Shown here: positions 1,431 to 57,489 of the stretch, piece by piece
How positions within the stretch are numbered: position 1 is the stretch's first letter
Layout: each line of letters starts with the position of its first letter
NCBI GenBank assembly: GCA_002633005.1
Contig: NMRA01000629.1
Location: 109,589 to 173,588 of the forward strand
Length of the DNA: 64,000 nucleotides
Direction of reading: 5' to 3'
Source: Phoronis australis
Taxonomy: Eukaryota > Animalia > Phoronida
The notes under the pieces: generated by a model
Database searches by the model: none
Told to the model about the DNA's origin: nothing
What the model saw: the letters and a program-made list of their open reading frames with translations, nothing else
Program-made: the position numbers and the translations under genes

Positions 1431-4259
1431 TCTGCGTGTACCAGCGCAGAGTCTTGTTATTCTTAGATTTTAATTATTTTCTTCTTCGAATTATTATTTT
1501 ACTTTTCATTTTAAAGACCTTAAAGTCCTTCTCTCACGCGTTTTTAACCCTTATTACATGGTTAGAGGATGTTATAAGGATCCAAGAAGTACCTACCCCA
1601 TAACTAATACACGATCCGTACTCGAAAAAAGTTTAAATGAACGCGCCACTCACGATTCGCATCCGAAGAACCACCGCCATTTTGAACTTGCCGCGAACCC
1701 GGAAGTACAATTCATTCAGGAACCCAGGCCGAGAAAACGCCGTCAGTGCGACTGGAGCAGTGCTTGTACTGTCACCAGCCAGCAAACGGGGATAAAATAA
1801 TCGACAGCGCGCCTTAATTTTAATAAAATCAAACTACGGACAATTTTATCGAATTTGCTGAAGAAATGTGGCGAATAAATTTTGACAGAAATTATTTTGC
1901 CAGACTCGGGACCGCAGCCTATCGGACCCGGTGCGGATCGAGATCAGACACTGGCGAACGGTAAATGCATGCGGATGCAAGCTGTTTGTCGAAGTAAAAT
2001 GGTCAAATCATAAATGCTACATATATTCAAGGGTAGTTTCAGACACTTGCATGAAATTACGGGCTGGATAGTCCTGTGTCACACTGCCGCGGCAGACCTT
2101 AGTTAGCCTCAGTCACCAGCTACCAGTGAAGACTATCGTCAACATACAGCTTGTTAATAGGCCTATACAGCTTTGCGCCAAGGCTACCCTTAGGCCTAAC
2201 TGGTCGCTGGCCACAGCGCTTGCTCAAACGAGGTTTATTTAGAACTTGGGTACTTATGGCCAACTGTACAAAGTTGTTGGCTTTCAATAGAAAATTTCCC
2301 AGACTTTGTTTTAGCGCACCATGCCTAAAAGAATGGGGGGGCTGGAATTTTTGGGAATGTCCATCTTTTACTACAAGATTCAGTGGGTATGTTCAGAGCT
2401 ATGAATTGCAGACTCTAAATTTTAGTACTTCCTGTCTTCTAGTGGAATATTGTCTCATTTTCTACTTTTTTCGGAATTCGTGCTTCTGAAACTGAGGCAG
2501 ACCTTTTTCAACTTCTCCAAAAAGGGGGCTCGTTCGAGCACATAAGTATGACAAGTCCAATACAACATGTTATCATTTTTTATTCATTACCCAAAATGAT
2601 TCAAACTTTTAACATAATAAGTAACTTAAAATGCACAATACTTTACAACATTTAGCATTACAAACACTATTCAACAGCAACAGTTTCCATGATATGAAAG
2701 TGGAAATACATGTAACTATTACCATGGTGACGGAATAGTGTTTCCTTACACCAGAAATTGACAAGCATCATTTAAAAAAAATATGAAGTTGCGAGGAACA
2801 AAAATTAGAGGCTTGAAGCTTCACAATCCAACATAGCTTATTTCTCAAATTAAGATTATTCATATTGTTGACTAGATAACCTGAATTAAGAAGCAATAAA
2901 TTACAAAACATCACTTGAAAGCAATTGAGACTCAAACTTTAGAAAAATATGAATCATTTTGTGACACCGAATCAAGTCTTGAACAGCAGTTGACAGTCAA
3001 ACAAAAAACCATTTCAAAATTATTTAACTATTTTTTTAGCTTAGTGTAAGATCACCCGAATGGGAAATTTACAGTAAAATAATTCGAATACATCTTATAT
3101 CTTTGCACAAAAAACACGAAAATTGAACAAAGTTTCTTTTTTGTAGCAACGTTTGTCAAAATGTATCAACGTTAAATCTTCACAAATTACAAAGTAGCCG
3201 ATTGAACTTGCCTTTGAGTTCAGCAAAAGTCGCCATGTTGTCGGTGCTGCCAGAAATGAGACGAAGTCCAACGGGAATTGTGAGCAAATTTATCACTTAA
3301 TGAGTAACAACTGCTAAGCTGAAATTTGGTGAACACTGTTAAATCGTGCAGAATAGTAAGTAAAGATACATGTATGTCTAACTAAATTTCACCGTAATTT
3401 GTTGGCTGGCAAAAACAATTTACACAAAGTTTTAAACTCGTAACTTATCCTGCTGTCTTCCAATGTGTCCGACGCGATCCAAACAAAGTGACCCAAATTT
3501 CGCCAAAAAACTTGCAATAACTTTACGCTGCTTGTCCCGATTTTTGATACTTAATAGATTTTTACTGAGTAGAATGCACTACCTTTCCGATGATAGCAAA
3601 GTACTTTTTCAAAACGAGAAAAAAAATAAAACCGAAAAAAATAAAACCGAAAAAATAGGTTTGACCCATATTGGTTCCTAGGCTCGACCGGCCTACGTAA
3701 GGAACTAAACACCAATGCTATTTTAACATACAAAGTACGCGTAACATTCCAAAAAACATCAACGACCACTAACTACAAACTATCAATACAGTACATATGC
3801 AAACGAATCACGAGATATTACTAACAAAACAAAATAATAAAGACTTTTCGAGCAAGCGATAGCACATTCAGTTACCAGGAAAAAATGGCGGCTTTCAGGA
3901 CAAGTTCCTGAACTGATGAGCCGGAAATGTGGGTACGGAAATAACCGATGACAACCGGTAATCATACGCTCAGAGAAAAGGGTCTAATACTGTTCAAAAA
4001 TTGCTTTTAGCAAGAAAGGCGAAAAGAATATAAAGAAAGGGTGTCGAAAATAAGATTTTATGTAGTAAGTATTTTCGGATACTGGAACCACATGGGCAGT
4101 TTGAGAGAAGGACTTTAATAAATCTCAAGCTACACAACTCTCAAATTCAAAACTTTTCAAGTACTTTTGAGCCACACAAAATCTTTACAAAATGGCATAT
4201 TTTGACTAATAATGCACCGTAACAGTCTAATTTTCAAAATCCTATTTCTCATATAATTT

Positions 4260-5500
4260 CCAAGTACTTCTACTCAATTACAGTGTGAAGGTGTAAGTCT
4301 GGATGCATTCCAATCAGATGAATTACCTGTCTAAGTAATCCGGTCATCCAATCAGATTAAATAGTTCCAAAGTCATTGAGTGCCAACTCACATCCTAAGC
4401 TAGACACTTCAAATTCACAAATCTGATTTTATAAAGTTTCATGTCATCTGGTGCAACTGAAGGTCATTAAGAGCATTTTTTTCTTAAATTTTGGCCTAAT
4501 CATTCAACACTTATTCTGATGTGTCAAAGGTTAGACAGCCGTGATTCTCGGCATTAAACACACTTTTCACGAATTCTACTAAAATGACTTACATGTATAA
4601 TGCACTGGGAAGCGTCAATTAGTGCAAAGGTAATGAAATTTTAAAATGCTTCTTAGGCACATTTTACATGGATTTTTTTTCTGTTTCAGTGTACTGCTAA
4701 TCGCATTGTTTTTGAAGTAATCGGTTCATCCATCCAATCAGATGAAACAGGACTAATGTCATTAAGGGGAAACTAAGGTTTCAAATTTAGATACACGTAC
4801 CTGGTTGGTACATGGAATTAAGTTTCATGTCTCACGTGTCAGGACATTTGGTGCATCATGGCATAATTAGGTGCATTCATTTTTCTTCTGGAGCTGACCT
4901 TTTGATTCAGCGTATATTCTGATGCCCCAGCAGTTACACAACTATTATTCCTTGCTTACACACACTTTTCAAGGTATTTCTAACAATTCTACCAAAAGGC
5001 CACATAATGCAGAGGAAAGAGTCAATCAGTGCAAAGGCCACTTAATTTTCAAAATGCAATTTTCCTACATTTTTCAACTAATTCGCTTCAATTTCAGCAC
5101 TCAGGTGTACGCATACACGTCAATCAAATGCACTTCTTTATTTAGCAACTGGAGCATCCATTCAGATAAAATAGGTCTCAGAGGTCTTTGAGTGCAAACT
5201 TAAATTTGAAGTAGTCACTTTGTACTTACATGTGGGATTTATACATTGACCTGAGTTCAAATTCCAAAGCTTCAGGTCATTTGGGGCAACCATGGAGTAA
5301 TTAAAGGAATTTTTCTTCTGAAATGTTGACCTTCTCATTCTACTGTGCCAGCAGTTTATTATCTGTGATTCAGCATTATCCATATTTTTATTTTCTATTA
5401 CAGTTCAATATAATTCTACTATGGTGCACAAGCCAGTCGATAAAATGTACAATTTTCCAAAAAGTCTCACTAACGCAGAGTAATTATTCTCATTTTCATA
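4260..5500. repeat. Degenerate ~400-bp tandem repeat (about 3 units)
   Basis: catcca(a/t)tcagat recurs near 4346, 4731 and 5156; gtcaat(t/c)agtgcaaagg recurs near 4615 and 5021. Confidence 0.55.
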
Positions 5501-5799
5501 CAGTGTTTCTATCATTAATACTATTATTCTTATATTTTGATGTGTATTATTATTATTATTATTATATTAATCACCATTGCCATTATTATAGTGCTATTAC
5601 TGGAAATCATATATGATGCTTTTAATATAAATAATGGATTCAGTAATATTTAAACTACATGTACAGTACACCCACGAATGTAACTCTTTCAAAATTTATT
5701 GGTTATTTTTCTTTCTCTTATTCTCGGTGTCACTTTAATTGTATGGGATATTGTAACCATTAATTTAAATATACAGTGTCTGATATCTGCGGACTGATT

Positions 5800-8700
5800 G
5801 TTAAAGTTTCGCCTGTGTCTCATCCGTGGGGACGGTCGTTTTAATAAGGACGAGTACTATTTCGTCTCCGTCTATAACACTTTTAATATTTTGTGACCCA
5901 TCATTGTTAAAAATGTAGTTGAAATACAGTATGTTGATTGTGATACAGCTACAAATTAAAGACTGGTGAAATCTGATCCCCATCATTGACTATTATGTTG
6001 TTCACTGATCTTGTCTCGTGTATTCTCTCTCATCAAAGTTGTTGTGGTTTGTACTACAAGGTATGATAATAAAGTATAAAAAAGATGTGCATGTGACTCA
6101 TAAAAAGCTAATTTTGTGGTTATTTGTTGGATGGAACAGGCTTCTTGAAGTTCAAATACTCAGAGATGCATCACAATGCAACCCTTTCATCAAAACAATT
6201 GCAATGAACAACTTCGCATAAAACGTCATTCTCCATAAGTCGCTTTTCACTTGGTCCTGAATACTTGCTCATTTTTTAAAATGTTTTCGGTTAAGTCGTC
6301 GTTCCTGAGAAGAAGCTTTCTTTAATTTATCGCTGAATTTTATCCCGCATGCAGGTGTTTCCACACACCTACACGGAATACAATTCCACTGAGTTGAAGC
6401 AATTCCACGGAGACGAGGTTCTCCCAAGTTGGAAGTCATTAGCCTCGCAGATTCTTGTACAAATGTAAATAATCTCAACTTCTGTTGAAACTTGGATTAG
6501 AAAACCATCAAGCATACTGATTTAGAAAGCGGCCGCAACTACACGTAAGTGTACCTGTGTAATTTGAAGTATTTTCGTTGGGGGCTACTTGCACTTGCTT
6601 TCTGTCAAAAATCAGAAATTCACGAAACTGCACTTATTTTTCCATGTAGTGGATGTATGAACTTTTATGTGGGTTTGTTTAAAAGATAGCTATGATTTGA
6701 GGTTGTGCGTAGATAGGGAGAGAACGAATACATTAAGTAATTAATATATTATATGGTAAAAACATCATCTAAAAATACATGTAGATATTGTCGTCAAAAA
6801 TACGTGTAAACAAGTTTAACCCCACGCTTTAAACGTATATATACATATATTTTGAGCAACTTAAATGGAACTATATGTACTAATTACTTTATTAACCTTT
6901 ATTTTGACAGTATAAAAGTCACATGATAAATGGACTGTCCACTGAGAAATCAGGTGGAAGTTTATGAAATCTTAAGTTAATATTTGTAAAGAAACACCTT
7001 GCTGAAATAGGTATATTAATCAAACTCAAGCTGCAAATGTCTGTAGAAAGCGTGGCTCAAACTCGTCATCTTGGTTATTTGTGCTGAATTTGTTTGCGCG
7101 ATCTGAGCTCTGAAGCCAGGTGACATGCAGTAATCTGTGGAACACCGAAAAACCGATCTCAGCACAATTTTGATGGAAGCTTTCAACTTCACCCATGGCT
7201 CATTTTGTGGCGGTTTTCTGGGTATTGTTTGCGTGTGAGATTAAACTGGAAATGTCATGGTTGACGCCGTTTATCAAATATGCGTATCTTTCGTGTATCC
7301 CGGATGTTGACAGTACTAAGACATGTGACGGGACCAAGGAAACTAGCATTGTAACGCTAGTGTTACTAATCACATTACATGAACATGTTTATTTATTTTA
7401 TCATACATGTACATAGAATACAGCACCAGTTGACATGAGCCAACAACTTCCCCATCATCTTAGGTTTACATGTACATTGGCCAAATCTTGCGCTAACAGG
7501 ATTTACACACAAGTTGACGAGAAAGCGTGCATCGTTTTACCCCAGAGTATCCAGCAAAACCCTTGGCACATCAAAAGATGATGATGCCGATAAAGACTGA
7601 AGTGTGCTGGATGAGATAATTGCTGTCGTAAACCAAGTTCTGCCGTCAACGTGACAGTAAACAGTTTGTCAAATTTTATGAATATCCTCCAAGAAACTTG
7701 GAAGAAATTAAGAAAGCGCAAAGAAATCCATAATTATCAGTAGTGAACTCCAACGCAGTTGAATTTGTGTGACTTAAAATCAACGAACATTCCGAAATGA
7801 TAACACAACAGTTTGATGTTCTTGTTGTATGACATATTGACTTTCCGAAGTTCATGTAATTAGCTTTGACAAGAGGTATCAAACAACAATTTACGTTTTG
7901 TGTTTTTGCGATTTTGTTACAAATCGTCTATTCTCGCCGCTGTCTGTCAACCATTCGCTGGGAGTCTTAGTTAGTTAAATTTTGTAAATTGTCCACCAGG
8001 ATGTGTGACATGTGTGTTCCAATTGTGACGTATTAAGCGAATGTGGCTAGTATCCATTGGTTGTCAAATGTCATGTTATTCAGACATTGGTTCAAAATCA
8101 TGAAGATGCATTCTAGAAAATATGCATGCACAGATGCCGATATAAATGAGCGTCTTTTGGTAAATCGTTAAAAACATATGGAAATATTTCCATGAGGTTA
8201 GACTAAGAGTAGCTGTGACGCAACCTACATGTACATGTGCATGTATACAATGTATGAAAACTAACTGTTGATAGCAGGGTTGGTGCAGCGACGTTGCCAA
8301 TAACTTCTGGTGAAGATATTTATTTTAATTTGAAATAGTGACGATATATTCTGTGGCTTTCTATTAGGAATGTCCCAAAAAAACATAAAAACGTTGTTAC
8401 AACTTCGCCATTAGAATCAGGACTCTTTTACATATTCTGACTGTCTGTGCTTTTTTACACAAGTAACAGTGTGCTCCACCTAGTTTCATTTTAAGAGTCA
8501 ACATCAGTCTCACGGAGGAACTGGAAGGCGTTTTCGGAAACTGTTGTTAGCTTCAACAAGAATTATGAAACAAAAAGACCTCTAGTTTCTGTGACAAAAC
8601 GACAATTCTCGTTGAAATCTGTCAGACTTTCGCAGAGATCACGACAGCTCACTGCACTAGTTTGATACGCGTTTAATACTCAGCCACTTACAGTACGGAG

Positions 8701-10170
8701 TGAGACATGAAATGAAGTGCAGCCGTTGTCATAGATATCTATACCTGAAATCTTCAAAGATAAAAGCCCCCTCACAGGAGACCACCTTGCTTAATACATA
8801 TAGGCCTTCATGTAGTCAGTAATTCAAAGAGCTGTTAAGTTGTCGCTAGTGACATTTCTATAAATTGATCAAACTGTTGGTCTGCATAGAAAAAACATTT
8901 CCGCAAAAATGTCAAGCGAAAAGTTAACAAGGAATCACGTGCTACTTCAGGCCACGTACCAGAAAGTTGTATTAATTTCGTCTCAAATTTCCAAACAATG
9001 TTAAATGCAGTCATTTGTTTCCTCATCAGGGTTTTGCGAGGGCTATTGTTTTAAAAGGCTTGCTTAATGTTTGAAATAGCTTTGTCACAATCAATCAAAT
9101 ACTGTTTGAATACTAATCGTCAAAATCGCGTACACATCGGTCACTTTTAATCATGTGACAGATTTAGAAAATTCTTGAAAAACAGTATTTGGAAGATTGG
9201 GTTTGCTCATTGGACGTAAATTTCCCACGAGGACTATATATTTTGCTACAATTGTCTTAATATAGCTAATCGAGAAGGCGTATTTTCACCCGTACACTGA
9301 CAGAACTTCAGCATGGATTCCAAACCTAGCAAAACATCGTTAAGGATGTGTTCCTTCAACGCTTTCCTTGTTTTGATCTTGTGTGTTGCCCCCTCGCACG
9401 GTGAAGCACGTGGCCAGTTCTTTGAGTTAAGGAAAGGGACAGTTCCGGGGTATGCGCAGTTAGTCTCAAGCTCCACCACATGGACGCTTTTGGGCTGTGC
9501 GTCCATTTGTTTTAAAGACAAGATGTGCGATGCTTTTGCCTATTCGCAGCAGAGTACGGGTTGTCGCACGTTCTGTGTCAACGATCAGATGGCCGAAGAA
9601 GACAAAAATGTAACTGAATGGAGTCATTACGAGAAACGGGGACTCGTTCAAGGAAGTTGCACACCAGGTATGATACCAACTGGAGCAAACTCCAATTTTA
9701 TTTGAATACCGCTAGCAAACATATTGTACTAAAATGTTTTCAAGTCCAGGTTATCCAGCTCCATTAATTTCTGTGAATGAGACTCGTTTTACAAAATCGA
9801 GCTAAAACTTAATTCCAATGATAATAAGAACCAAATTCCTACTGAGACAGCATGCTATTAAGATACTGATCTCAAACTGCTGTGGTCTAATTGGTGATGC
9901 AACAACTGACATTTTGTTGGTGCGGAGACCAGGCACACAAGTTGTCTTGTCACGTATCATTTGATGCACACAACATGGTCTCAAAGAAAAAAGAACTTCC
10001 AGTTCTTAGCAAACCAAGAACTCACTTATCGTCTGAGTACAGAACAAGTGGAGACCACTCACATAGCCGCAAATAGTCTGAATCAACGATCTTTCTTTTT
10101 GGAATGGACGTAGATTGATATCTGCTTTAAAAATGCAACTAACTTAGTTCTTCAATTATCACAAAGCATT
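5800..10170 (+). repeat. Segmental-duplication backbone, unit 1 (paralogous blocks at 17370-19320, 21520-21710, 46580-47830, 49540-50050, 50810-51420)
   Basis: Long colinear near-identical strings, e.g. tctcaacttctgttgaaacttggattagaaaaccatca at ~6473 and ~18050; aattgctgtcgtaaaccaagttctg at ~7618 and ~51070; gatgttattcagatattggttcaa-like at ~8073 and ~21522. Confidence 0.85.
9313..9705 (+). CDS. Secreted PAN/apple-like protein, type B copy 1
   Basis: Hydrophobic signal (AFLVLILCVAPSHG), then C-x3-C-x5-C-DAFAY-x6-C PAN pattern; paralog at 46942-47418. A strong phase-1 donor (CCAG|GTATGA at ~9667) suggests this may be exon 1 of a spliced gene rather than a single-exon ORF. Confidence 0.75.
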   Translation: MDSKPSKTSLRMCSFNAFLVLILCVAPSHGEARGQFFELRKGTVPGYAQLVSSSTTWTLLGCASICFKDKMCDAFAYSQQSTGCRTFCVNDQMAEEDKNVTEWSHYEKRGLVQGSCTPGMIPTGANSNFI

Positions 10171-11879
10171 GTTTTCGACGTTTTTTGGTTCAGGTCTCAG
10201 TGAAGGTACATTGTACGTTCAATCGTAGACTAACACGTTTACTTTAATGGATCGCTACTGTACGAGTGTGGGTCGTTCCGGTCACCATCTTAATCTGAAG
10301 CTGTTGTTGTTTATTGTTTTTTTTCGAATTGGATATTTATAAAATAGTGATATTCATGCATACACGTATATATGTTCTCACACAAATACTTAGCTACGTA
10401 ATTATGAGTTGTTTCTCGTAAACTACGTTACCACACCTTTTGGAAGAGCCTGAACTTGCCATTAATCAGTGTAGATTATACACTCACTAAAATCAAATAT
10501 CATTTTTTCCGTAAACTAATTTAACATGATTTTTACATTCAGAAGATAACTTGTTAAAATCTCCCGTATATAGTGTGATAGGCTGTTGAAAGAGGTGCTA
10601 AGACTGAAGCTGAAAATGGACTATTCCCAACATTCAGCCAAGGCCATAGGTCGGGGAGTACATTGGAACCTTTGTCGCGTTTGTTGACTAATTTACCGGT
10701 GATTATTTGGAATCCAATATGGCAGAGCAACTTTAATCTTGTATGAAAAATTTAACAAGTTTCAAGAAAAAGCAATTTCATTCGAATATTTTAAAACTTT
10801 AGAAAGTAGGACAGTCACTGCCGCCAATAAATTAACGGTGCAATTTTGAATAATTTTGCAATACATTGACTGTTTGAAAAGAAAAAATATCAATATTGGC
10901 CATATTTCTATTCGAATTTGAGGAAAATTTACCGTAGATCCCCTATTAGGGAGACGTCACGCTGAAAACTTAGCATTTGCCAAAGGTTAATTCCTCTGTG
11001 AGGGGTCTTTTGAACCATCCGCTATGCTTAATTCTTGAATTGGAATTGGAAAAGGCGTGTTTGAACTCCCTGAAACATTAATTAATATAAAATACACAAA
11101 AATTGTCCCTTTGCAGTACAATTCATGACAGCGCCCTTTCGCAAAAATTCTGGCAGTGAATCTGAGTGGTACGTTCTATCTGCACTCATGTAGGATCAGA
11201 AAAGTTCCAGCGTTTCTTATTATTTTCCTGATGTGCGCTCCTTGACAGTTTAATATTCATCCGCGTGCATGAGACAGGCGTTGAGCCGGTAGGTCTTCGT
11301 CCCGCGTCTAAGAAAGCACATCCAGCGAGGCACGAACGGCAGAGTTCTTGTAGTGCACTCACTATTTTGACACTTAAAAAGACGTCGGTAACTGGCGACG
11401 TATCGTTGAAAAATGGCAATCCCGACGAAATGCATGAAACTCTTTGGAGAAGATTATGGTAAAGTCATCGAAAAATACAATAGTGTATGTCTTAATTTGC
11501 TTCCAATAGGGCCGCAAACGGAAGTACACTGTAAACCACTCCGTTTAAAAAATACATGTAAAACCATTTGTCCTTAGCCCCGTTTCATGAAATTTCTTAA
11601 GGAAAAAATTAAGACTGGACATGCTCTAAGCTCAGACCTAATGTCAGCCTGCAACGGAGTAAGCTTAAAATTGCACTTTTGGTCTAGATCGACCACAATT
11701 TACTAGTAGATCAACTCTGAAAACTGGTGTGGAACAAATATCTTTTCACAATCTAAATGTCTCTGAAATCGAAGATCGTCTGCTTTGAGAACTGGCAAAG
11801 CGGCAGAGACTCGTAGACTCAGTGCAGTGCATCATACTTAGACATGCGAAACGATATTTTCCAGTCGTACCTGTAGCAA

Positions 11880-12440
11880 GGTCCTCACACATCCAAACTG
11901 TTGTAAATAAATCCCACTAAGCGTTTCAATGCCAAGAGTATTCTTGAAACCGTATTTCAGAAACAGCACCTCGCTCACTTTTTTGAATGAGCAGCAGGTG
12001 GCAAAAGCGTAGTTTGTACGCTCACTTATGCCAAAACCCAACTTATTATCTGTCTTAGTTACAACCAAAATCCAATATCGTACTTTGTATTCATAAAACA
12101 GGACCATGGAGGAATGGAATGCCAAATTGTGCGCCAGTCTCCTTGGTGAGGAGATATCCTTTCTGCGCCGTTTGCCGTTGACGATGTTTACGGCTTACGA
12201 GACCGACACAAGAAACCTTCAAAAACGTAAATCTCTGAATTCTTATAGAGTTCTTGAAGATTCTTCTTCTTACTTCTTTGATGTGACTGGCAAATTTAGG
12301 TATTTTTTTTCCTAAAACCTAAACAAGATCCAAACACAGATTTTAATTATTTTCATAAGCGTTGATGCTGCCATCCATGATTCGAAATATGGAGAAATTG
12401 TTTTGGCTACTGTTGAAATAAAAGTTGGTTGCCTAGTTAA
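11880..12440 (+). pseudogene. Second copy of the type-A upstream region (signal-peptide-like exon, Sushi-like remnant); downstream PAN exon absent
   Basis: Colinear with ~300-830 (e.g. gacacaagaaaccttcaaaaacgtaaatctctgaat); MEKLFWLLL vs MEILFWLLF. No PAN exon seen before the next paralog block at 17370. Confidence 0.6.
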
Positions 12441-12956
12441 TTATGTGTTATCGATGGCATCACATCAGTTTTGCAATAATCTAAGTCTAAATTGTTGCAT
12501 AGTTGTCGTTAATTTAGATTTTTGAATTATACTATAGCACTCTTTAAGGTTGATATAGCTTTATATGCCGCGATTTCCTTAAAAATTCGTCAGGATTCTG
12601 GTAAGTAAATTTCTCCGTACCAACCCTCAAATGGTTAAACCGTTCAACGCAATATTGCGGCTTGGGGACGAGGCTGATCCCGTGAGTGACCTTCACATAG
12701 TTCTACAGCATTCAACCCTGATATTTCGCGGGAATGGCTGCGCCAGTTTGCACTGTGTATTTCTGGTTGTCCACTCAAGATTTGATAGAATGAATGACTT
12801 GTGATCGAACACGGAAATCATGGAAGCAGTAATTTCATTGCCTCATTTTCATTTTATCATTTTTGTCCGTAATGGAATCAACAAATGAGACCCTTGAGGT
12901 AGAGTTTCGGATAAGCCTGCGACTTCTCGGCAATATGAGTAAGAAAAAGTCTATGT

Positions 12957-15075: not shown

Positions 15076-15699
15076 AAGAAAAAGCCTATGTATTGTTCAT
15101 TGTTTACACGCATCAACCCGTGGCTACATGTATTTGAGGACGCCGGGAATAGCTCGTGGGTATTTTTCATTGTTTTGTTACTGACTTTATTAAACTTAAT
15201 TTGTTAACTACAAGTAACACGCGTAAAATAATGCATGTGGCATTGTACCCGGCCTTGTCTGTTGTTACAATGCTGAAGGGAAAATCTGCGTTTTGCATAA
15301 TTTTCATGCTTTTATGACTGTTTCAAAACTTGCTTATACAGTTTCAGTGGAGTTCAAGTTTACCTCTGAAATGAGCAAAAATACACCTCAATACGAATGT
15401 CCCATTTCCCTTATTTCCCCGGTTACCCGTCAACAGTCTGCAAGCATGCATTCGGTAATTGCTTATAACAAATTCGTTGGTTTCTGATTTACTTGTTTGT
15501 GCAACTACCAAAACTGATAGATTCATAGATGATTTTATACACTTAGAAGCTAATATTGTAAGAACTGGTGATAAATCAGTGAATTTAATTGCAGCCTTAA
15601 ATATATAAAATTAAACTAATCGGTTGGAAGGGGTTTCTTTGCACTCCACTGGTGTTTTTATTTTCCAATAGTATTAAGCAATGAATTTTTGTTCTTCGA

Positions 15700-16085
15700 A
15701 ACTGAATTATTGCTTGTCCTTATTCGCATGCACGTCATGACTGACGTACTAACGTTAAAAAAAGATAGAAACATGCTGTTGGCCCGCGGAAAATCTCAGT
15801 TATCCACGGGAATTGAAATTGAACTCCACGCGTTCAGGAAGTGTGTACATTTTTGGGACACAATATCGACTGTTTCCCCAGCCACCAGAAGCTGGACTAC
15901 CGGTCGGTATTTTGAAACAGCCCCAAAGGCAGTATACGAGGACTTCGGCACCTCACCTTTCAAAAAAAAACTTCTTCAAAGAATGACCATAATAAAAAAG
16001 TTTGCCTCGAAACTAGATCACAATAAAACGAATCTTGACCTTATAGCGAGCGCAGATGGCCGGTACGAGCTGCCTGTCTCAAGTG
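15700..16085 (+). repeat. Older diverged fragment homologous to the P-like element at ~62050-62375
   Basis: aagtgtgtacatttttgggacac...ttccccagcc...cagaagctggac matches aagtgtgtgcctttttgggacac...ttccccagcc...cagaagctggac at ~62137-62197, and stays colinear to gtctcaa. Confidence 0.6.
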
Positions 16086-39680: not shown

Positions 39681-40162
39681 AATTTTAGCTGAACTATTTT
39701 TTTCAATTTGAAATAGGAACGGTATCTGCCTGAGTCTTTCTTGTTATTAAGACTGCCCCAGCAATTCATACAGTTTTGTTGCGATTGTGTCGTGCGAACA
39801 AGGACACTTTTACATAACCTGATCATACTGTTTTTTGTCGAAATAACTGTATGCTTGGCCTACTATTATTTCAGACGACAACATCGGCTTAATGGCCGAG
39901 AACGCATTTCTGGAATACTGTTTCTGTGTGATTTTATTACACATTCCAATTCTCGTTGAGGTCTGTAGGACATATGCAGAGATCAAGACAGTTGATTTTA
40001 GCAGTTCAATTCTCTTAGAATACTCTGCCACTTCGGGAGTGTGTTTTAGTTTCGCCAACAGGCCGATAGACTTAGCCCGCGAGGTTTCCGGTGAAGTCAT
40101 AAAAGTGTGCCCATTGTTACTTATGTACAAGCCGGATATTTTAAAGAGGCATGGAACGCAAA

Positions 40163-43100: not shown

Positions 43101-45740
43101 TAAAATTGCTGAAAGTATCAAAATTAAAAAGGCTTGAAAATGGGTAACAAAGGTTTGAAGTTGTCTCAAAAAACTTGTATATTTTACAGACAAGTGATGC
43201 CTTTAAAGAATTGTTATGGCTAGGGATAAAAAATAAAGACACAGTTTTATGCAATACTCATTATATACACCCTTGGTTTCTGAAAATAGTAATTATTTAC
43301 TTTTATGTGAAACTGTAGACCAATCACCATATATTTTTGAAAAACAGGGATAACATTTTTGATCCAATCTGGAGTACTTAATTATTCATATTTCAATATT
43401 TGTTCCAGGTTCAGTGACATTTTAAGGCCACTTCAAGCTGTATCATAGACAAGCTTTGTTACTCCGTTCTCTTCCCACAGCACTTCCACACACCAGCAGT
43501 GCTGCATGGCACAATGTGCAAGTCAGTGGCCCTGGAGAAATGTGAATCGCAGTACTAAGTTACCATAAGACAATGTGCCAGTGGAGTGTCTGTGTATCCA
43601 GACGAACTATATCTGACTGCTACACAAATAAGCCTTGTTGGTGAGGATGCCCTTTCATAGGCAATGAGTCATGTGTGGACAATAGCTTATTTCCTTTCCT
43701 GGAAGAAACATGAGGGACTGAAGCTAAAGAAGACCTAGTCACACTCTGGTCTAGTTCAGAGTCTGATTTTGGGCTCAAAACGATTCAAGTGATATGCTGC
43801 TGTGTTTACCTTCAAGGGTCTAATTGTGGATGTTATTGAGGCTGAATGAGGTTACATGAAAGAAAGCCACGTGTTGAAACTGGACCTTTTTTACAAGCGC
43901 TTCTATAGGCCATTGAAACTAGAACCCAGTGAAATGAAAGCCAAAAGCTGAGTGACATTAAATTTTCCTTTCAGAAGAAAGGCTTTATACTATTGGTAAA
44001 AACTTTTCAATTTGGTACAGATTATGGGGAAATGACATTCAGTGACTGCATCGATTGTCTTATTGTATGTTTTCAATTGTAGCTAGCTGCTATGCACAAG
44101 ATTCGAGAATAAACAATTATCAGTGTATTTAAAAACAAATGGCAAACTGAAAAAGCACAGAAAGAAACATTGCGAGGGAGTCCATAATCAGGCATATCAG
44201 GTGCTGAATTACTGAATTACGTTCAATTCTCTCAGGTTATTGCTGAAGGATTGCTTTTCACTTTGTCCAACGGTGAAATAGATGGTCAGGCGGTTGGTTT
44301 CAGTTGTTTTTTCTTGCCTGTAACAGAATAGAAATATTAGCAAATTGTAAAAGAAAAGGCAAGACAAAACTACTTTTGTAAGGCAGAACATACTTGACAT
44401 TTCATCTTCATGTTTATGTGTAGAAACTAATAACCTTTGTACCCAAGTCTTATTTAATAACTGCATAAAAATATGTGAAACAGGCTAAAAGTGATTTAAC
44501 AATGTGTATTTTTCATGACACTTAAAATGTGCTTCTGATCTCAACAAGTAAAATTCATTCTAGGTGTCAATTTTTTTCCAATGCAATGTTACGACATTTA
44601 CTGAGTTAAGGCTTATTCATGTTAATTCGATAACTGAGCTGGTGGTCCTGGGGATGGGGTCCACGATAAAATAAGGAAACTCACTCATCTAGAGAATTTT
44701 ATTGGAAACAGCATAGTTTTGAAGAGAAACTGCTGTGAAAAAGTCACTCTTGACTTCTGTGCATCACGTACCATACACCTCTTATTTTGGGAGCACTCCC
44801 ACCCAGGACAATATGAATATGTGCTGCTAGCCTACCCGGCATCGGGTGAGTTTCCAAAAAGAAACACTTAGTTCCACTCAATAAAACTGTTATTCAGTGA
44901 GGTAACTGGTGGGGATAACATCACCGAACGATGTTGATAGAAACTGATTGCTAAAAACTTACCAAGTAATGTTGTGTATTCTCCGAATGGAACTGGATAG
45001 TCATAGGATAGACATAGAGCACACACGGGGCTTCAGCATCCACACACTTTTTGTCAGTTAGTTGACCCTGTTGACCACAATTGTCCACGAATATAGTAAC
45101 CTTAGGTCTTTTGGGAATTTGTGGCCACCTGTCGAAGACTTGCACCAGGGAAATTAGCAGTAATAAGGCTTAGCGCGACGACGTATTTTGATAAAAATTC
45201 CATCTTTTACCAGTTGTTTACATGCAGACAGCCACGCATGCGCAATTTAATCACCACTAGTACAGCAGCGACACCGCGAGGAGAATTCTCCGAATAGCCC
45301 CATTTTCATAATTATGCTTAAGGCGGTTTGGTTGATAGAGGGGTGGACGTTAAAAACATACTCGAAAACAGTAGAAATGGCCACTCGGTGGCGCAAACTA
45401 CGTCAAACCCATCCAGAAAGGGGAGGATACCGTCGTCTCACTAATAGATGCCTATATACCAAATGTTGTGAAAATATGTAAAGGACCTTTGAAGATACAG
45501 ATGTAAACGTAAAAAAAGAAAATTGCAACTAGGGGGCATATTGGTAATCGGATCCGTCCGAAAGTTCGCTCATGCCGTCCCATCCATGAAAGGAACATAC
45601 ACATGTACGCTCAAAATATCATGAACATGTGTCAATCGGTATTGGAGATATAGCAGCGGACGCCGGACGCCGGACAGACGGACGGACGGATAGAAATGCC
45701 GGCATAATGCGTCCACATATAAATATGTGGGCGCATGAAA
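40163..45740 (+). mobile_element. Second HINE/pearl-like element, interrupted by insertions
   Basis: Starts acaagagcagtgcagagtgttgaaatgc (cf. 27581); ~143-155-bp core units; (ggac)n at ~45658-45690; terminal atgcgtccacatataaatatgtgggcgcat palindrome. Confidence 0.7.
41795..45301. mobile_element. ISL2EU-like DNA transposon (decayed), inserted in the HINE
   Basis: TIR ggggctattcgga / tccgaatagcccc; AT target duplication confirmed by the uninterrupted sister unit catgcc-aattttca at ~41335-41348. No intact ORF, so the superfamily call rests on GG..CC termini and AT TSD. Confidence 0.65.
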
Positions 45741-46941
45741 ACAATAAACTGCACGATTCAAAGTGGTTCTCTGCCACTGAAACAGAATGCCCTTGTAATT
45801 CACCAGACATTTTTATGGTTTGTTCGTAAAGATTTTGAATTTGGTTTTAAACTTCAAAAACACGATCTGTCAACTGCTAATTAGTTCTCCTTCAAGGCAA
45901 AGCGCGTCTCCTTATTGGGTATGGCAATACGTAGGGAAGCACATTTCCTATATGGAAAACGTGACATTTGACTTTTGGTGTAAACAAAACAATGGCTACT
46001 TCAGCAAAAGCCAGTCAGATTAAGAGATAATTGATGTAAGCCCTAACATGTTAAAATTAGTTATAAACGTATCGTTGCATTGCAAATTATTCTAAAACTC
46101 AGTTAAGTTTATAGAAAATTGTTTCCTTCACTGGCTTGACTCATAAAGTGTTCTGTAGACCGGAGTGCTATCACAAATGATATATACTGCCCTTAATATC
46201 CATCTTGTCAGTCAGCTGTTTGACGAACGGTTGCGAGAGCACGCACACTTTTATCATAAGTGGGAGGGGAATTAGAAACACGGTGGTGATTACAGGGTTT
46301 TTCCTTCGTGCATATTTCAAAAATCGTTAATTTTGTGATTCTTTTCAAAATTATCAGTCAGCGAAATTAAATAGTTGGCAGGTTCATGATACTTTCGTTA
46401 TGAGTTCTTTGGAAGTCATTTTGGACGAGTTTTAAATTCGTGTTCTATGCCTCTTTAAGGCAAATGCCACTTCGCAAGGAGACACTTACGTAGAGACAGC
46501 AATGCAATAAGCTGTGAAATTGCTGTATACTGATAATGAGTGACACTTAAATAAATAGATCCGAATGTTGGTCTTCATCGATAAAAGTACATTCGTTAAA
46601 ATGTCAAGAGAAATACTAAATAATAAGGAAACATGTACTGAAGCAGACCAATTACCAACAAGCTGTATTGATTTGCGTTTCCAAACAATGTTTGATACAA
46701 TACTCATTAAGGTTTAGGGGGGTTATTATAAAAGGTTGGCTTAAGTTTTATGATTTAAATACCTTTGTCACAGTTTCTCAACTAATACTTGAATACTAAT
46801 CGCCAATGCTGCATGTACATGTATGTACACATTGGCCATTTTAATCACGGGGCAGATTTTGGAAATCCTTCCTTGTTTCATTTGTCTCAGTTTAACTATC
46901 GAGAGGACACAATTTCGCCATTATACTAACATCACATCAGC

Positions 46942-47418
46942 ATGGCTGTCATGCCTATCAAAGTGTTGTTATGGATCTGTTCCTTAAAAGTTTTCCTCGT
47001 CTTATTCTTCTTTGATGCTTCATCCCACTGTGAAAATTGTGGCCAGTCCTTCGATCTTAAAAAAAGAAAAGTCGCGGGAAATGCGGAGTTACTCTCAAGC
47101 TCAACCACATATACGATTTTGGACTGCATGTTAGCATGTTTAGCTGTCAAGGACTGTGATACTTTTGCATATTCGCTGAAGCGTAGGGAATGTCGCACAT
47201 TCTGGGTCAACGACCAGCAGCTTACCGGAAAACGTCAAGAATTAACAGACGCTGAGTGGAATTATTATGAGAAAAGAGGACTCGTTCCAGGAACCTTCAC
47301 ACCAGCAGGTTTGATTCCATCTGAAGCAGCAAACTCAAACGTTAACTGGATACATCCAGCATGCATACAAATGTATTTTACTAAAACGTCACACACGTCC
47401 ATCAATTTCTCTGAATGA
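46942..47418 (+). CDS. Secreted PAN/apple-like protein, type B copy 2
   Basis: Signal-like KVFLVLFFFDASSHC; DCMLACLAVKDCDTFAYSLKRREC; WNYYEKRG conserved with 9313-9705; phase-1 donor GCAG|GTTTGA after 47308. Confidence 0.75.
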   Translation: MAVMPIKVLLWICSLKVFLVLFFFDASSHCENCGQSFDLKKRKVAGNAELLSSSTTYTILDCMLACLAVKDCDTFAYSLKRRECRTFWVNDQQLTGKRQELTDAEWNYYEKRGLVPGTFTPAGLIPSEAANSNVNWIHPACIQMYFTKTSHTSINFSE

Positions 47419-47849
47419 AGCTAGTTTTGGAAGTTTATACTTAAGTTGACTATAAAACAGCTTTCCATCACAAGTATCAACTTTTTATTTAGAATACAAG
47501 CTGTCATGAAATTGGTCTCAAATTGTTTTAGTCAAATTAGAGGTGATTAAGGGTTTCAATAGAACTGATACTCCGTTAGTGCTTGAGGTCCACCACTTCA
47601 AGTTGACTTGTCACGTATCATCTCAAACGCCGGATTTGATCTCAAAGATTGACAACTGCTAGAACATATCAAATCCAGAAATCACTTTACGTCTCAGTAC
47701 GGAACAATTTAGACTTAGTTCTATAGCAGAAAGTGATTTAAATTAACGGGTTGGTGCACGTGGGTTCATAGACGCTTTAAAGAAGCAATTAAATGAGTTC
47801 AGTAATTAACACAAAGCATCATTTTTGCAGTTACATGTATACATAATAT

Positions 47850-48420
47850 ATAGTCACGTCATCTTTTCTTGAAAAACAATCGAAGTCGTGAAAGACTACG
47901 ACCAGTGGCAGAGTGTAATGTTGTTTACCAATTCACATGTCATATGGACGAATGTCTTCGTCCTTATTCTCGTGAGCAGTGTCACATAGGACACACGATG
48001 TGTTCTCTCTCGCGACGGTTGTCCATGCACTCGCAGATCATTTCATACACCAACATGGCCGAAATATAACTAGGCAAGAAATACTAGACAATACCATCAT
48101 TCGCTATGTTGAAAATGACACATTTTGGTTAAAGATTTTGGAATCGCTATTGATCAGTTACAAAAAACCTGTGTTGAATGAGCAGCTCACAGGCGTGTAC
48201 CGCACTCTGGCTCTGTTTCGTTAGGGTTGCGGGCTTACTATCGTGTGTTGGATTCACACTCTCTGCTTGTATGCCCCTCTTCCCCATGTCACGAGTATTC
48301 CAATATTTATTTCGCTATGCATAATTTCATTCCATTTGTTGCCTGATGATAAGACATGTAGTCTCGAAATATAGCTAGTGTTTTACTTTGTTTGTTTGTT
48401 ATGTCTCTCGGTGTTTTACT
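47850..48420 (+). mobile_element. Penelope-like element 3' fragment (GIY-YIG endonuclease remnant)
   Basis: NVVYQFTC...HIGHTMCSLSRRLSMH; LKILESLLI...KPVLNEQ; followed by a hammerhead-like motif. Confidence 0.75.
48336..48380 (+). ncRNA. Degenerate minimal hammerhead ribozyme (Penelope-type)
   Basis: CTGATGA-t-aAGAC-atgta-GTCTc-GAAA core with stem II; stems I and III weak; position matches the PLE terminal repeat context. Confidence 0.45.
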
Positions 48421-48580
48421 ACATACCTGCACACCTTACGAAAGGAGACTGTTACTAAACAACGAGCGTACCAGTATCAAGTTTGCAAACAAAAAATCTA
48501 GTATTCGTATTATTTATTTATGTGTATGTGAATGCGTATGCGTATGCGTATGAATACACCTGTATATCGCTACTTTTCAG

Positions 48581-48822
48581 TTTGCGTCACCACGGAAGTG
48601 TCTGGTTATGACGTCAAGTGTGGAGACTGTCAAGGAAACGATATTCGTGAGATCATCAATTCCAATCCGGTTTCCTGTGCGTGGGCGTGTAACAACTCTA
48701 ATAACTGCGTGGCGTTTGTTATGTACAATGGAAAGACGTGCTACATAAAGTACAAGTCTTGTGAGATCCCCACTACTGAAGGTCCAATCAACTCACTGTG
48801 CGTTGTGTACACTAAGAAATAA
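48581..48822 (+). CDS. PAN/apple-domain exon, type A copy 3 (intact reading frame)
   Basis: ttttcag acceptor at 48580; YDVKCGDCQGNDIREI...CAWAC...CVAFVMYNGKTCYIKYKSC...LCVVYTKK*; 8 Cys after VSG; AATAAA downstream. Confidence 0.72.
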
Positions 48823-49086
48823 ATCAATTAGTTTCCAAGAATGTGTTGTAATAGAAAACATTTTCGCAATTACATTTCCAAAGTCGTATTTTTTACTGAA
48901 GTGAATAAAGAAGTTCAATGAAATATTCACATTTAACAAATTCCCAACGTCACTAGATTTTACGACTGGTAAGATGTCATTGATTTATTCAACTAGACGA
49001 CCATGTTGTACGTCATATAGCAAACGCATGGTGCAATTCCTGTAACATCCATGAATATAACGTATCATTATGTTTACTATTGTTTT

Positions 49087-49087
<1 letters not shown>

Positions 49088-49123
<36 letters not shown>
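49088..49123. repeat. (TGT)n microsatellite
   Basis: About 12 perfect TGT units; positionally equivalent to the microsatellite at ~1330 after type-A copy 1. Confidence 0.9.
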
Positions 49124-49124
<1 letters not shown>

Positions 49125-49299
49125 ATCATTATCGTTTTATTTATCGTTATAACCAATCAAAAGTACTATTATTGACAACAATGCATAATGACTACAGTAC
49201 TAATAATGAATTTACTAATAATCAAACTACGTTTACTACTGTAATTGCAACCCAAACATCTAATTACTTTAAAATATTTTTGCCACAGTAATTGTCTGG

Positions 49300-49460
49300 A
49301 TGATACAACTAAAATGTTCTAACCATAAAGTTAAAATTGAAATTGACCGGGATGCACAGAATGATAGACAGTATCGCCTGTGCGCCTACTGTGAAGACAA
49401 TCGTTTGGTTGAAGACGAGTATCATTTCGTCTGCGTCTGCAGTTTGTAGTCTGAATTAAT
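49300..49460 (+). mobile_element. Short LINE 3' fragment (C-terminal CCHC zinc finger)
   Basis: KIEIDR...RLCAYCEDNRLVEDEYHFVCVC translated from 49322 onward. Confidence 0.6.
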
Positions 49461-52400
49461 ATAAGCAGCACTTCTCAACGTCTAGCCTTGGTTTCATATA
49501 ACACACAAAATTTGAAATCACGTTTTTTTGTACAGTGGTCCAGTCTCATGCATCCTCTTTCAACAAAGTCGTTGCAATCTATGCTGTAGTCTAAAGTAAG
49601 TAAATCTTAAGTCAGTGATGAAATTCGAAATTTGATATTACTTGTTGGTGGAATAGACTTTTGAGGTTTGTGGTCATGCATCATTACAAATAAAAATGCG
49701 TTATATATTTCTGAATTTTATCCCAAAATTGAGATCAGAGTCTAAAACATCTTCACCCTGATAAGAGATGTTTTGTACACAGCTGGAAAAACTTTCCACT
49801 GAGTTGAAATAATTCACACAGAAAATTTCCTCCCGGGCGGAATTCATTAGCCTCCGTAGACAGATGTGTTAACAACATTTAGATAATTTCACGTGACGAT
49901 GAAACATTTACAGGACTTGTCAATCAATCAAGAACGACGGAAGTGACAGTAACTAAATGCACCCAAATACATGTAGGCAGAAGTATTTTCCATGAAGGTG
50001 CCTGATGAAAGGTCAAAAATCAGTATCACGAAACTACACTTGTTACTAAAACGAATGACTTGAGCCATAACTGGCTGGCTACTGAGAATTCTGCTGGAAA
50101 TTTCGGAACCCCAAAGTTAACAGCTGCAAAGAAGCCACATAGCTTGAATGTCTACATTAACCAAAACGACTGCAAATATCTGTAAGAACTTTAGCTCAAC
50201 GAAATCCTCACTGCGGATAATCCTACCGTTGCTTTTAGTCCGATTGGAATTCTGCCATGAAATGAAAGAGAAACTATTCGCAGCATTAAGATGGAAGCTA
50301 GAAATGCCGTGGTTGTCCCCGTGTACGATTCAACCAATATGCCTACATTACAAAGTCTTCATCTTATGTACCGAACTTAAAAACAATTCCACGCCTTGTG
50401 TGGCATTTATCATGAAGTGGGGCACATTAGTTTGTCAGAAATTATAGACATCCAATTTTTACAACCTTTTATGTAAAGTACGTGTATTTATGGCACTTCA
50501 TATTTTACTTTACCACCTTTGAGCTCTTCTCAATGGAATGGGTGCAACTGTCTCAAAAAGTCTTTCACCCGTTTGCAAAGGCATGTACACAAAAGTGCAT
50601 TATTCTCTTAGATCATCACACTGAAAATGGTCACCATCAAGGTATTATGTTGCCATTTCAAAGTTCTGTGCCATACATGTAGCTACCATGGACAACATAT
50701 TGAAAGATGCTGAACATTCACAGCAAAGTAAGTTTAGTGTATCCTCGGACGAAAACAGAATAAAGACATAACGGGACGAGGGGTGATTTATTGCCACCAG
50801 TAACTTCAAATGAACATGCTTATCAGTCGTAAGATACAGTACCAGTGGACATCAAGAAACAACATCAACAGCCTCTTCGGCTTACATTAACCAAATCTTG
50901 CGCTAAAAGGATTTGCACACAAGCTCCTGGATAGTAAGCAACGGTCACCCCTCAGACTTTCCAGAAAACTCTTGGACACATCAATGGCCTGCGGCGGCCG
51001 TCAAGGATTGAAGTGAGCTACTAGTCTCTTTTCATGGGCTTGGCCAAAGGTGCTGTACAAAATGCAGGTAATTGCTGTCGTAAACCAAGTTCTGTCGTCA
51101 ACATGATAGTAACTTATTAGTCAAATTTCATGAATATCCACCTAGGAACTTGGAATACAATGCGAAACGCAAGGAAAACCATACATGTACTTGCCACTAG
51201 TGCACTCCACATTTATCGAAATTGCCAGAATTAAAATCCACATACTTTCCGAAAAAATAACACAACAATATCTTTGAGTTTATTGATGTATGGGATATTG
51301 ACTTTCCGAAATTCGTGTAATTATCTTTGACAAGTGCTATCACACAACAATTTCCGATATGGTTTTTACGATTTTGTTGCCAATCGTCTATTCTCCCATT
51401 GTCTGCCAACCATTCGCTGATATCAATGCCAATAACATTTAAGCAGTTTAGTACGCTTTTAAGTCATTAATGGAGTGGAATTAAGCTCCGCCGGTAGAGT
51501 GTTAGAAAGCGGCTACGCGGCCTTCCAGTTTCAGTCGGCACTGAGAATGATTCCAGAGTATCACTTTTCTCGCCGATAGTATACCCCAAGCAGCTAGGTC
51601 AATGACAGTCCAAGCTCCTTCCAAAAATCATCTATGAGGCACAGTGATTTTAGACGAGGAACAAACATGTGCCTGAAGTACAGGTAGCTGTGATAGGTTT
51701 TGAAGATCTTTGAGGAATTCAATTTATTTGAAACTGACGGTTCATAAAGCACTCAAAAGATACAGTGTTCTCCACATCGTCAACTAAGTTGGTTGTTTCT
51801 CTGTCCTCTTGAAAACCAATCGTGACACGTTTTGATAAGCATCCATCTTCCTGATGCAACTGCACTTAAGTTTCGTTATATTATAAGTACATTGCATTCG
51901 AAATCATGGTAGATTTGAAACTTGTCGGTCATATATGTCAGTGCAAAGAAATGGACAAAGACCACAGAAAAAATAGATATTAAATAGCATACGCAAAAAA
52001 TATGAACATATAGGGATAATCGCCCGCACCTAAGTAAAGCATAGCATAGCCTCACGCGTTTATATGTGAAACAATTGAGGAAAATACTTGCTGAAAAAAA
52101 TATTGATTTTTACATAAATATATGTATATGCTACGAAAACCAATTTCAGTTCTATGTTGTATTGTATTTATTATTCAAATGCACGCAAGATTAAAAATAC
52201 GAGGCGTTATAAAATACAATAACAATAAAACAAGTAGCCTTTTGTAATGACAAGAACCACATATGTAATTATTGAAAGGGTAGTAAGCGTCATCGTTAAC
52301 GAATTAACTAAATGAATCCTACATGAGATTGATTTACCATGTTGATTTGAAAATTTTCTAACTTATACACTGGCAACAAATTGACAGATGTTTAAGCGCA

Positions 52401-53139
52401 CTGACGTATGAAAGCAGAATTGCAGAAATATACATTTACTACATCATGGCGGGTGTGACTTTGAAGCACAGTAAAACATTATATTGTATATTTCAATACA
52501 TCAGCAAAAGCGTAAATTTACTTTGCGTGTATGCTTCAAATTCAGTATAGAGGCGCATTTTGGCGGATTCACGGCCTCAGCCCCTTGAACTACTCAGTAA
52601 GTACGTCTGGTAATCCAAAAGTCCTGTTCTTGTATNTATTTATTATTCAAATGCATGCAAGATTAAAAATACGAGGCATGATAAAATACAATAACAATAA
52701 AACAAGTAGCCTTTTGTAATGACAAGAACCACATATGTAATTATTGAAAGGGTAGTAAGCGTCAGCGTTAACGAATTAACTAAATGAATCCTACATGAGA
52801 TTGATTTACCATGTTGATTTGAAAATTTTCTAACTTATACACTGGCAACAAATTGACAGATGTTTAAGCGCACTGACGTATGAAAGCAGAATTGCAGAAA
52901 TATACATTTACTACATCATGGCTGGTGTGGCTTTGAAGCACAGTAAAACATTATATTGTATATTTCAATACATCAGCAAAAGCGTAAATTTACTTTGCGT
53001 GTATGCTTCAAATTCAGTATAGAGGCGCATTTTGGCGGATTCCTGTTCTTGTATCCAGTAACATTTTGCAGCAAACCCAGAATGTCGGGTAATGACGTGT
53101 TGAAATATTGAGTTTTACTTGACAATGGCTAGAATATCG

Positions 53140-53560
53140 ACGGCAGTTTTGTCATTAGGTGAAAGTCCTCTTTCCTTGGCTGTTCACAGCAGCCTCTAGA
53201 GATGTACCAACGGAGGTGATCAGAACTGTACATTGGCATTTGCTTTTCATATACAGTAGCTCCCTCCAGCAGCTTCAGGGATGCTAGAGCTTTCCATTCC
53301 TCAAGCACTGTTGTTCTTTCTCCACAACCACTGCGATGCTCTTTCAGCCTGGTAAACCTTGTCATCCACAACTTTCTTCCAGTCGCTTATGCAAGGCTGA
53401 CGTTAATGTCCAATAACCTGCTGTATCCAAGATGCCGCTTCTCTCATGTTGTTTCCCAGTGTCATCTCCCTTGCGTAGGAAACCAGTGCATCCTACATGG
53501 GCCACTTGTCACATTTCGGTCCTTCTTAAAAGCCTTCTCTAGGTGTCCTACCACTTCTAC
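53140..53560 (-). mobile_element. Second HERO-like fragment
   Basis: Shares ccactgcgatgctctttcagc and cttctctaggtgtcct...accacttct with 38940-39680. Confidence 0.6.
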
Positions 53561-53954
53561 TAAATACCGTGTATCCAATTGTATCGCTGTCATGACAATA
53601 ATTTATTTAAACTATGTCTTTCAATTTAAAATGAGGACATTCTTGTTAGGATTTCTCCGGAAATTCCTGCTGTTAATATACTTTTTGTCAGTCGACTGTG
53701 AGCGCATGGGCGTTTTTATCCTAACTGGGAGGTAAATTAAAAACTCTGTGGTAATTACAGAGCTTTGCTTTCCAGCATATTTCAAAACTTGAATTGAGTG
53801 ATTTTCCACGAAATTCCGACTCAGGGAAAGTGAATAACTCTGTAATACATTTTGCCATATGATACTTTTTGTTTTGAAAGTCATTTTCCTGCGTTTTCGC
53901 GTTTTGTGCCTCTTTAACGGCAAAGGTCGCTTTTGAAGTCCAAGAAGCACACGT

Positions 53955-54645
53955 TGTTAACCCTTATTACAAGGTTAGAGGAGGCTATTTGGATCCAAGA
54001 AGTACCTATTCCAGAACATATACCCAATCTGTAATCGAATAAATTTGAAAGAAACGCTCCACTCACGATTCGAACACGAAGAACACCGCCATTTTGAACT
54101 TACCGCGAACCCGGATGCACAGTTCATTCAGGAACACAAGCTAAGTGTACGCCGCCGGTGCGACTGGAGTAGTGTATGTTACCAGCTTGCAAACGGGGAT
54201 AAGTAACCGACAGCCCGCCTTAACGTTGATAAAAATCAAAATACGGACAGTTTTATCGACTTCGCAGACAAAATGTGGCGAATAAATTTTGACAGAAAAA
54301 GGTTCGAATCACAAATGCCGTATAGGCTACATACAAAAATATTTTCACACACTTGCATGAATTACGGGCTGGTTAGTCCTGTGTTACTCTGCCCCAGAAG
54401 CCCTAAGGTTACATGTAGCTAAGCCTGCTAGCAGTACTGAAGACTATCGTTAAAATACAGCTTGTTACTATACAGGTTTGCGCCAAGGCTAACCTTAGGC
54501 CTACAGTGTACGTGGTCACTGGCCACAGCGCTCGCTCAAACGAGGTTTATTTAGAACTTCGGGTCTTCTGGCGAACAGTTTAAAGTTGCTGGCTTTCAAA
54601 TGAGATTTTCCCAGACTTTACATGAGCGCACTTAGCCTAAAATGG
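53955..54645 (+). repeat. Paralog of ~1545-2330 (unclassified repeat or duplication block)
   Basis: ggatccaagaagtacct, cgccattttgaactt-ccgcgaacccgga and gctcaaacgaggtttatttagaactt shared and colinear. Confidence 0.85.
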
Positions 54646-57483: not shown

Positions 57484-57489
57484 TACAAA

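Follow-up and report, generated by a model that had tools for sequence, protein, structure and literature searches.

Probable excision footprints of TA-targeting transposons across a 64-kb stretch of the Phoronis australis genome

The eight-letter palindrome TACATGTA recurs throughout a stretch of 64,000 nucleotides from the phoronid Phoronis australis (assembly GCA_002633005.1, contig NMRA01000629.1, positions 109,589 to 173,588 of the forward strand), which we call the window. An earlier note on this DNA had estimated about 30 copies by eye against roughly two expected. The count bears this out: the window holds 31 perfect copies in its 63,256 non-N bases, while Markov models of order 1, 2, 3 and 4 predict 1.4, 1.7, 2.5 and 4.6, respectively, so that the word is about 18 times more abundant than chance (31 versus 1.7). 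It is the most frequent 8-mer by count, other palindromic 8-mers reaching at most 9 copies, and its z score of 22 is the highest among all 8-mers in the window. When words of the form TA-x-TA were ranked, TACATGTA stood alone at the top, followed by TAGGCCTA (4 copies versus 0.4 expected). The copies are as follows.

2707..61426, span of the 31 perfect copies of TACATGTA, no strand assigned
Starts: 2707, 3367, 4590, 5656, 6776, 7404, 7467, 8226, 11553, 15125, 18133, 18527, 19070, 19413, 19722, 21017
Starts, continued: 24760, 25240, 27328, 29894, 35425, 46816, 47832, 49968, 50674, 51182, 54410, 54870, 55748, 57704, 61419

The copies showed no significant clustering, the longest motif-free run being 10.6 kb (35433-46815, P 0.10). 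Neither TATA (317 versus 321 expected) nor TACGTA nor TACTA was in excess in the window. TAATTA (47 versus 28.5) and TAGCTA (18 versus 8.9) were mildly enriched over the whole window, which could reflect one-plus-one scars or ordinary palindrome bias.

Filled and empty copies of the word

Self-BLAST of the window gave 42 blocks of at least 60 columns; re-aligned, and with redundant ones counted, these blocks span 15,791 columns and contain 312 gaps. Eleven of the 31 motifs fell within BLAST blocks and two just outside. Nine of these 13 were filled in one copy and empty in the other, one was filled in both, and no call was made at 8226, 19413 and 47832; thus 9 of the 10 resolved paralogous sites are private to one copy. 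The resolved sites are listed here, none with a strand, and a filled site is called a scar.

6776..6783, scar relative to a bare TA at 19051; one X3 family contig is 6 shorter as well
7467..7474, scar relative to a bare TA at 50883
51182..51189, scar relative to a bare TA at 7731; pairs reciprocally with 7467 within one duplicated block
18133..18140, scar; TG at the empty partner, 6556
19722..19729, scar; partners near 52487 and 52959 both 6 shorter, but 98% alike and counted as one independent witness
29894..29901, scar within the left arm of a terminal inverted repeat (TIR) element, whose right arm is empty in both repeat units
54410..54417, scar; empty partner TA at 2104, in diverged flanks, with the 6-column MAFFT gap shifted
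25240..25247, scar; empty partner near 47939, on the opposite strand
46810..46827, chained scars; 12-base gain relative to a paralogue near 9130
19070..19077, motif in both copies; partner at 6801 with one change

All seven filled/empty pairs proposed in the earlier note were recovered. Five of them (6776/19051, 7467/50883, 51182/7731, 29894/37040 and 18133/6556) showed a clean 6-base gap with the flanks in register, and two were noisy: at 19722/52487 the net difference is 6 with ambiguous gap placement, and 54410/2104 is compatible with the pattern, MAFFT giving one 6-column gap where the pairwise alignment breaks it up, with a net difference of 3 over 8 bases. Two further cases were found, 25240/47939, which is clean, and a 12-base gap at 46812-46823 relative to about 9130, whose simplest explanation would be two 6-base scars. 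In the duplicated block 7418-7960/50834-51419 each copy bears one scar, whereas the motif shared by 19070 and 6801 would, judged by the alignment, predate its duplication. At the aligned scar sites the TA target is doubled around a short core, and the inserted bases have no template in the flanks of the empty sites.

Of the testable TACATGTA words, 6 of 7 had a net 6-base gap, whereas among 82 control words of the form TA-NNNN-TA only 7 did (Fisher p 1.9e-5); of these 7 control gaps 3 overlap TACATGTA events and 2 are TAGGCCTA. Because the other words so rarely show the net loss of 6, the gaps at TACATGTA are not explained by collapse between two TAs. Among 26 six-base gap sites, TACATGTA accounts for 6 and TAGGCCTA for 1; CATGTA therefore exceeds other 6-base gains, which disposes of the objection, raised in the earlier note itself, that the hexamer might be nothing special among insertions at TA.

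The direction of the change was judged from public sequencing runs (contigs X1, X2, X3 and X5; raw reads X6). The best polarized scar, at 3367..3374 (no strand), lies in a high-copy TIR element in which the family majority is empty. Exactly six bases were absent there in 1409 of 2092 raw X6 reads of a second sample (246 starts), a figure taken from the best rows of the read tables, 12 of 163 indel rows at this site, with the rest of the read depth not shown to carry the motif. The same six bases were absent in 7 X1 and 5 X2 contigs, and in 2 X5 contigs of organism B; X5 covers 0.08 of the window's words and serves as a second organism for the 3367 repeat family only, not as an orthologous outgroup. 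Gain is also indicated, more weakly, at 6776, 29894 and 19722, where the comparisons listed above are empty. We conclude that the TACATGTA words are gains, and the alternative that they are deletions from an ancestral word failed at 3367.

These data also bear on the possibility that TACATGTA is ancestral or selected, for instance as an Irx/Myb-type transcription factor site, the empty copies having arisen by deletion between TAs. The word is a bound motif in Phytophthora (PMC11134190, PMC3520976), it is shared by both copies at 19070/6801, and filled/empty pairs alone cannot polarize a change. The family majority and organism B are nevertheless empty at 3367, other TA-NNNN-TA words rarely collapse, several of those that do being the same events, and 9 of 10 resolved sites are private. 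This reading is further weakened because the motif sits in decaying transposon copies. A binding site would be expected to be conserved between copies or relatives and tied to genes, and sequence comparison did not reveal this. We consider an ancestral or selected origin extremely improbable.

Flanking bases, sister forms and the excision model

With the scar removed, A occupied position -3 in 34 of 62 half-sites, compared to 0.33 for other TAs (p 3e-4), and the left and right sides contributed alike (16/31 and 18/31). The preference persisted when 13 scar-like halves were left out (28/49, p 3e-4) and was absent around 367 other TA-NNNN-TA words used as a control (0.36). A at -3 or T at +3 was found at 27 of 31 sites against a background of 0.54 (p 2e-4). 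The target consensus of Sleeping Beauty is ANNTANNT, with the -3 A and the +3 T most conserved (PMC8934666), and the target preference of ZB is similar (PMC7913693). Of the independent indications of a Tc1/mariner-type transposase, the flank preference is the strongest.

The same observations speak to a host repair product at breaks of other origin, such as those of a TA-cutting nuclease, closed with a constant insert that a primer or template supplies. Polymerase theta does make inserts at breaks (PMC4490562), and such an origin would suit the failure to find an element. Its inserts, however, vary and are copied from the flanks, whereas the insert seen here is fixed and is not present in the empty flanks; it is also palindromic, framed by an exact TA duplication and set within a transposase-like flank preference. 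Repair of this kind is a very improbable source of the words.

Gains of related form were found at other sites, again with no strand assigned.

5925..5931, TACAGTA; 5-base gain relative to 17455
53252..53258, TACAGTA; 5-base gain relative to 39074
8210..8211, TACAGTA allele versus TA; 5 letters inserted behind 8207, both alleles in sample S1
54502..54510, TACAGTGTA; 7-base gain (CAG + TG) relative to TA at 2197, assigned by eye where aligners place the gap otherwise
2158..2165, TAGGCCTA; 6-base gain relative to 54468

TACAGTA, the canonical Sleeping Beauty footprint (10.1101/659086), accounts for 2 of 22 five-base gaps. The alleles at 8210 are seen in contigs of 118 and 123 bases (X2, X3), the longer form being present in 2 of 2 S3 reads (X6) with one start; the insertion is one of three allelic indels within 1.66 kb, and its direction is not fixed by a paralogue. 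S1 also carries allelic deletions at 7289 (2 bases) and 7594 (20 bases) that are unrelated to the motif, and a 20-letter gap in 6740-8400, considered as a segregating scar, was rejected because it is the deletion at 7594. Further copies of TAGGCCTA lie at 2191, 16822 and 54496, and on this pattern TAGGCCTA appears to be a second scar class, TA-GGCC-TA. One-mismatch neighbours of TACATGTA are in excess (56 versus 38.6, p 0.005) and the mean decay of the scars is about 7%, from which we infer that the scars arose over a long time and not in one old burst.

We propose that the TACATGTA words are most likely excision footprints of TA-targeting elements of the Tc1/mariner/pogo type, in which both overhangs were kept, left by ordinary turnover. 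Both the flanking target preference and the sister forms with CAG ends support this reading independently. In the proposed sequence of events, an element with CA(G) ends would enter a TA, favouring A at -3 and T at +3 as seen in the flanks, and would double the TA. By analogy with Tc1 biochemistry, the transposase would then cut two bases inside each end and leave a CA overhang on each flank; the breaks made by Tc1 carry 2-nt non-complementary 3' overhangs (PMC4490562). Germline end joining would retain and fill both overhangs to give TA-CA-TG-TA, a product recorded as a rare Tc1 footprint, taCATGta (PMC3520976, citing Eide and Anderson 1988). Cuts three bases in could yield the rarer products of 5 and 7 bases, TA-CAG-TA and TA-CAG-TG-TA, and TA-GGCC-TA would come from a family with GG ends. 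The scars would finally drift to fixation, at about 1 per 200 substitutions as seen for paralogues. Repeat strikes on scars could build chains, which would be favoured because the scar itself brings the preferred bases: its second TA has A at -3, and its first TA has T at +3.

An alternative geometry, also footprint-based, would involve elements with CAT or CATG ends and annealing of their overhangs. It explains the uniform product better, and we assign it about one third of the footprint explanation. In Minos, which can serve as a model for this geometry only, the footprint core consists of the four terminal bases of one end and is not CATG.

Several results weigh against the excision of resident elements as the source of the words. 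The full ANNTANNT is present at only 7 of 31 sites (p 0.08, not significant), and strong polarity comes from one site only. The window was searched for TA-flanked elements of the form CA...TG or GG...CC within a 6 kb span, and none had convincing TIRs; no resident element matching the core CATG, which fits CA(G) ends, was found here either. Of the 156 stop-free frames with at least 72 amino acids, the 150 longest were compared with Pfam and gave no Tc1/mariner/pogo domain; only RVT_1, zf-RVT, DDE_Tnp_4 and PAN scored above or near cut-off. The absence of an intact element from 64 kb is weak evidence, since footprints mark places that an element has left. There was no occupied allele among the loose ends in the rows listed and no segregating TACATGTA: at 10 scars covered by allelic contigs of S1 no 6-letter gap was seen, although this test is weak because S1 may be the window's own source. 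Finally, TACAGTA as a whole is not in excess in the window (13 versus 11.2 expected), and the spectrum typical of Tc1/Tc3 was not found, with TACATA/TATGTA at 48 versus 47.2 expected and at 0 of 29 four-base gaps.

The uniformity of the product, together with the high rate and the missing element, would suit a hit-and-run reaction, or a dedicated enzyme of possibly domesticated origin, that stamps CATGTA at TA with no resident-element stage. The 5-, 6- and 7-base forms and the GGCC core fit several mobile families instead, the target preference is that of free transposases, and no candidate gene was found. We know of no enzyme that stamps a fixed six-mer into TA. The earlier note had left such an activity open beside a Tc1/mariner-like origin; insertion at TA and the resemblance to a Tc1/mariner footprint are supported, while the dedicated activity has gained no positive evidence, and we think it improbable.

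The rate of gain bears directly on this choice. In 23 hand-picked non-redundant paralogous blocks (10,250 columns, 17.6% divergence) we counted 8-10 events, or one per 180-225 substitutions; this amounts to 0.8-1.0 per kb of aligned sequence, in agreement with the earlier figure of about one per kb. The density of fixed scars is about 1 per 2 kb, and the genome-wide total would be about 1e5 scars if the window is typical. Assuming a genome of about 5e8 bases, a size for which contig totals of 406-503 million letters are the only indication, and 5e-9 substitutions per base and generation, we arrive at an order-of-magnitude estimate of about 0.01 scars per genome per generation, corresponding to 1e-5 to 1e-6 per copy for 1,000-10,000 mobile copies. 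Germline excision of Tc1 is reported at less than 2.2e-7 in the silenced state and at 1e-5 to 3e-3 when silencing is lost (PMC12632400). Since ordinary turnover can meet the rate, to an order of magnitude and with assumed values, a dedicated stamping enzyme is not required.

Other elements and genes in the window

The only TIR candidates in the window were inner positions of larger inverted repeats and a TTAA-flanked element, and were rejected. The residents are as follows; a strand is given where one was assigned.

1520-4118, TTAA-flanked element with AG ends and short TIRs, presumably Kolobok-like by the end rule; read depth hundreds of times single-copy, deleted derivatives seen as joints
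29730-37348, TIR element of 7.6 kb that splits the Harbinger-type sequence on the - strand
29313-29756 and 37604-37778, - strand, Harbinger-type DDE_Tnp_4 pieces, the C-terminal part identified by Pfam and the N-terminal part by eye
12833-14681, decayed LINE ORF2 (RVT_1, zf-RVT), multi-copy by read depth
27578-28767, 40160-41794 and 45299-45742, copies of a repeat family whose internal unit measures about 143 bases
55922-63073, element whose inverted arms are about 1.5 kb long (8.5% divergence); inner 20-base satellite and decayed cysteine-rich frame with no Pfam match; arms without scars
861-1148, 9301-9705, 46930-47418 and 48532-48819, four PAN/apple-domain frames in duplicated blocks, a small local gene family

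We take the element at 29730-37348 to be Academ-like by protein motifs only; Pfam gave no match for this label and Atlas returned only unnamed eukaryotic clusters. The unit of the repeat family contains CCAC(T/C)AG(A/G)(T/G)GGC(A/G)C, with 6 full matches, all on the + strand, and no TACATGTA in these copies. The motif resembles the CTCF core motif.

Comparison with known systems

In natural germlines, the excision of a DNA transposon is difficult to quantify, since the element has disappeared. A scar that is uniform, can be counted and dated, and occurs about once per 2 kb would preserve former occupancy like a fossil, and from it the lifetime turnover and target preference of possibly extinct families could be read. 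Such scars would also provide a fixed indel signature for mutation models and for the building of repeat consensus sequences, and they would caution that the highest-ranking de novo motif in genomes of this sort can represent a scar and not a regulatory site. An excision footprint is a known kind of change; its scale and the single dominant product retaining both ends are without description in the literature searched, and no account of genome-scale TACATGTA footprints in animals was found there (a search at the level of listings, mostly open access).

The closest parallel is with Tc1 and Tc3 of C. elegans, which share the TA target, the 2-nt overhangs, the CA/TG core and the recorded taCATGta (PMC3520976, PMC4490562, PMC12632400, 10.1101/2022.08.01.502254). 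There, TACATA/TATGTA makes up 73-78% of footprints (10.1101/2022.08.01.502254, PMC12632400), taCATGta is rare and germline products are very varied, whereas in the window the 6-base form dominates and the 4-base form shows no excess. The dominance of the both-ends product points to a differing germline end-joining route or differing element ends: either germline end joining keeps both ends here, or CAT/CATG ends anneal. With Sleeping Beauty and ZB the scars share A at -3 and T at +3 around TA, and TACAGTA occurs here both as gains and as a segregating allele (10.1101/659086, PMC8934666, PMC7913693). In contrast to Sleeping Beauty, TACAGTA is a minor class in the window, and TACATGTA is absent from the eight footprints listed for that element (10.1101/659086). 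Minos provides a Tc1/mariner element with a 6-bp footprint (PMC10992017).

An identical word is very abundant in another eukaryotic genome, as a promoter motif of Phytophthora (PMC3520976, PMC11134190). A footprint reading was rejected there on grounds of abundance (PMC3520976), and the parts of PMC3520976 examined contain no filled/empty test. A broader and rather unlikely reading is that a transposase-derived activity, or a paired germline repair regime, writes the six-base TA stamp as a distinct mutational process shared by distantly related eukaryotes, that this process creates Irx/Myb-type sites, and that the Phytophthora promoter motif consists of co-opted scars. If such a stamping process were true, it would contribute about 1 event per 200 substitutions, or some 3% of small indels. 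The two occurrences of the word differ in how they present themselves: in Phytophthora it is treated as a Myb/Irx-type binding site, whereas in the P. australis window it behaves like a neutral gain in dead repeats, most probably left behind by departing transposons.

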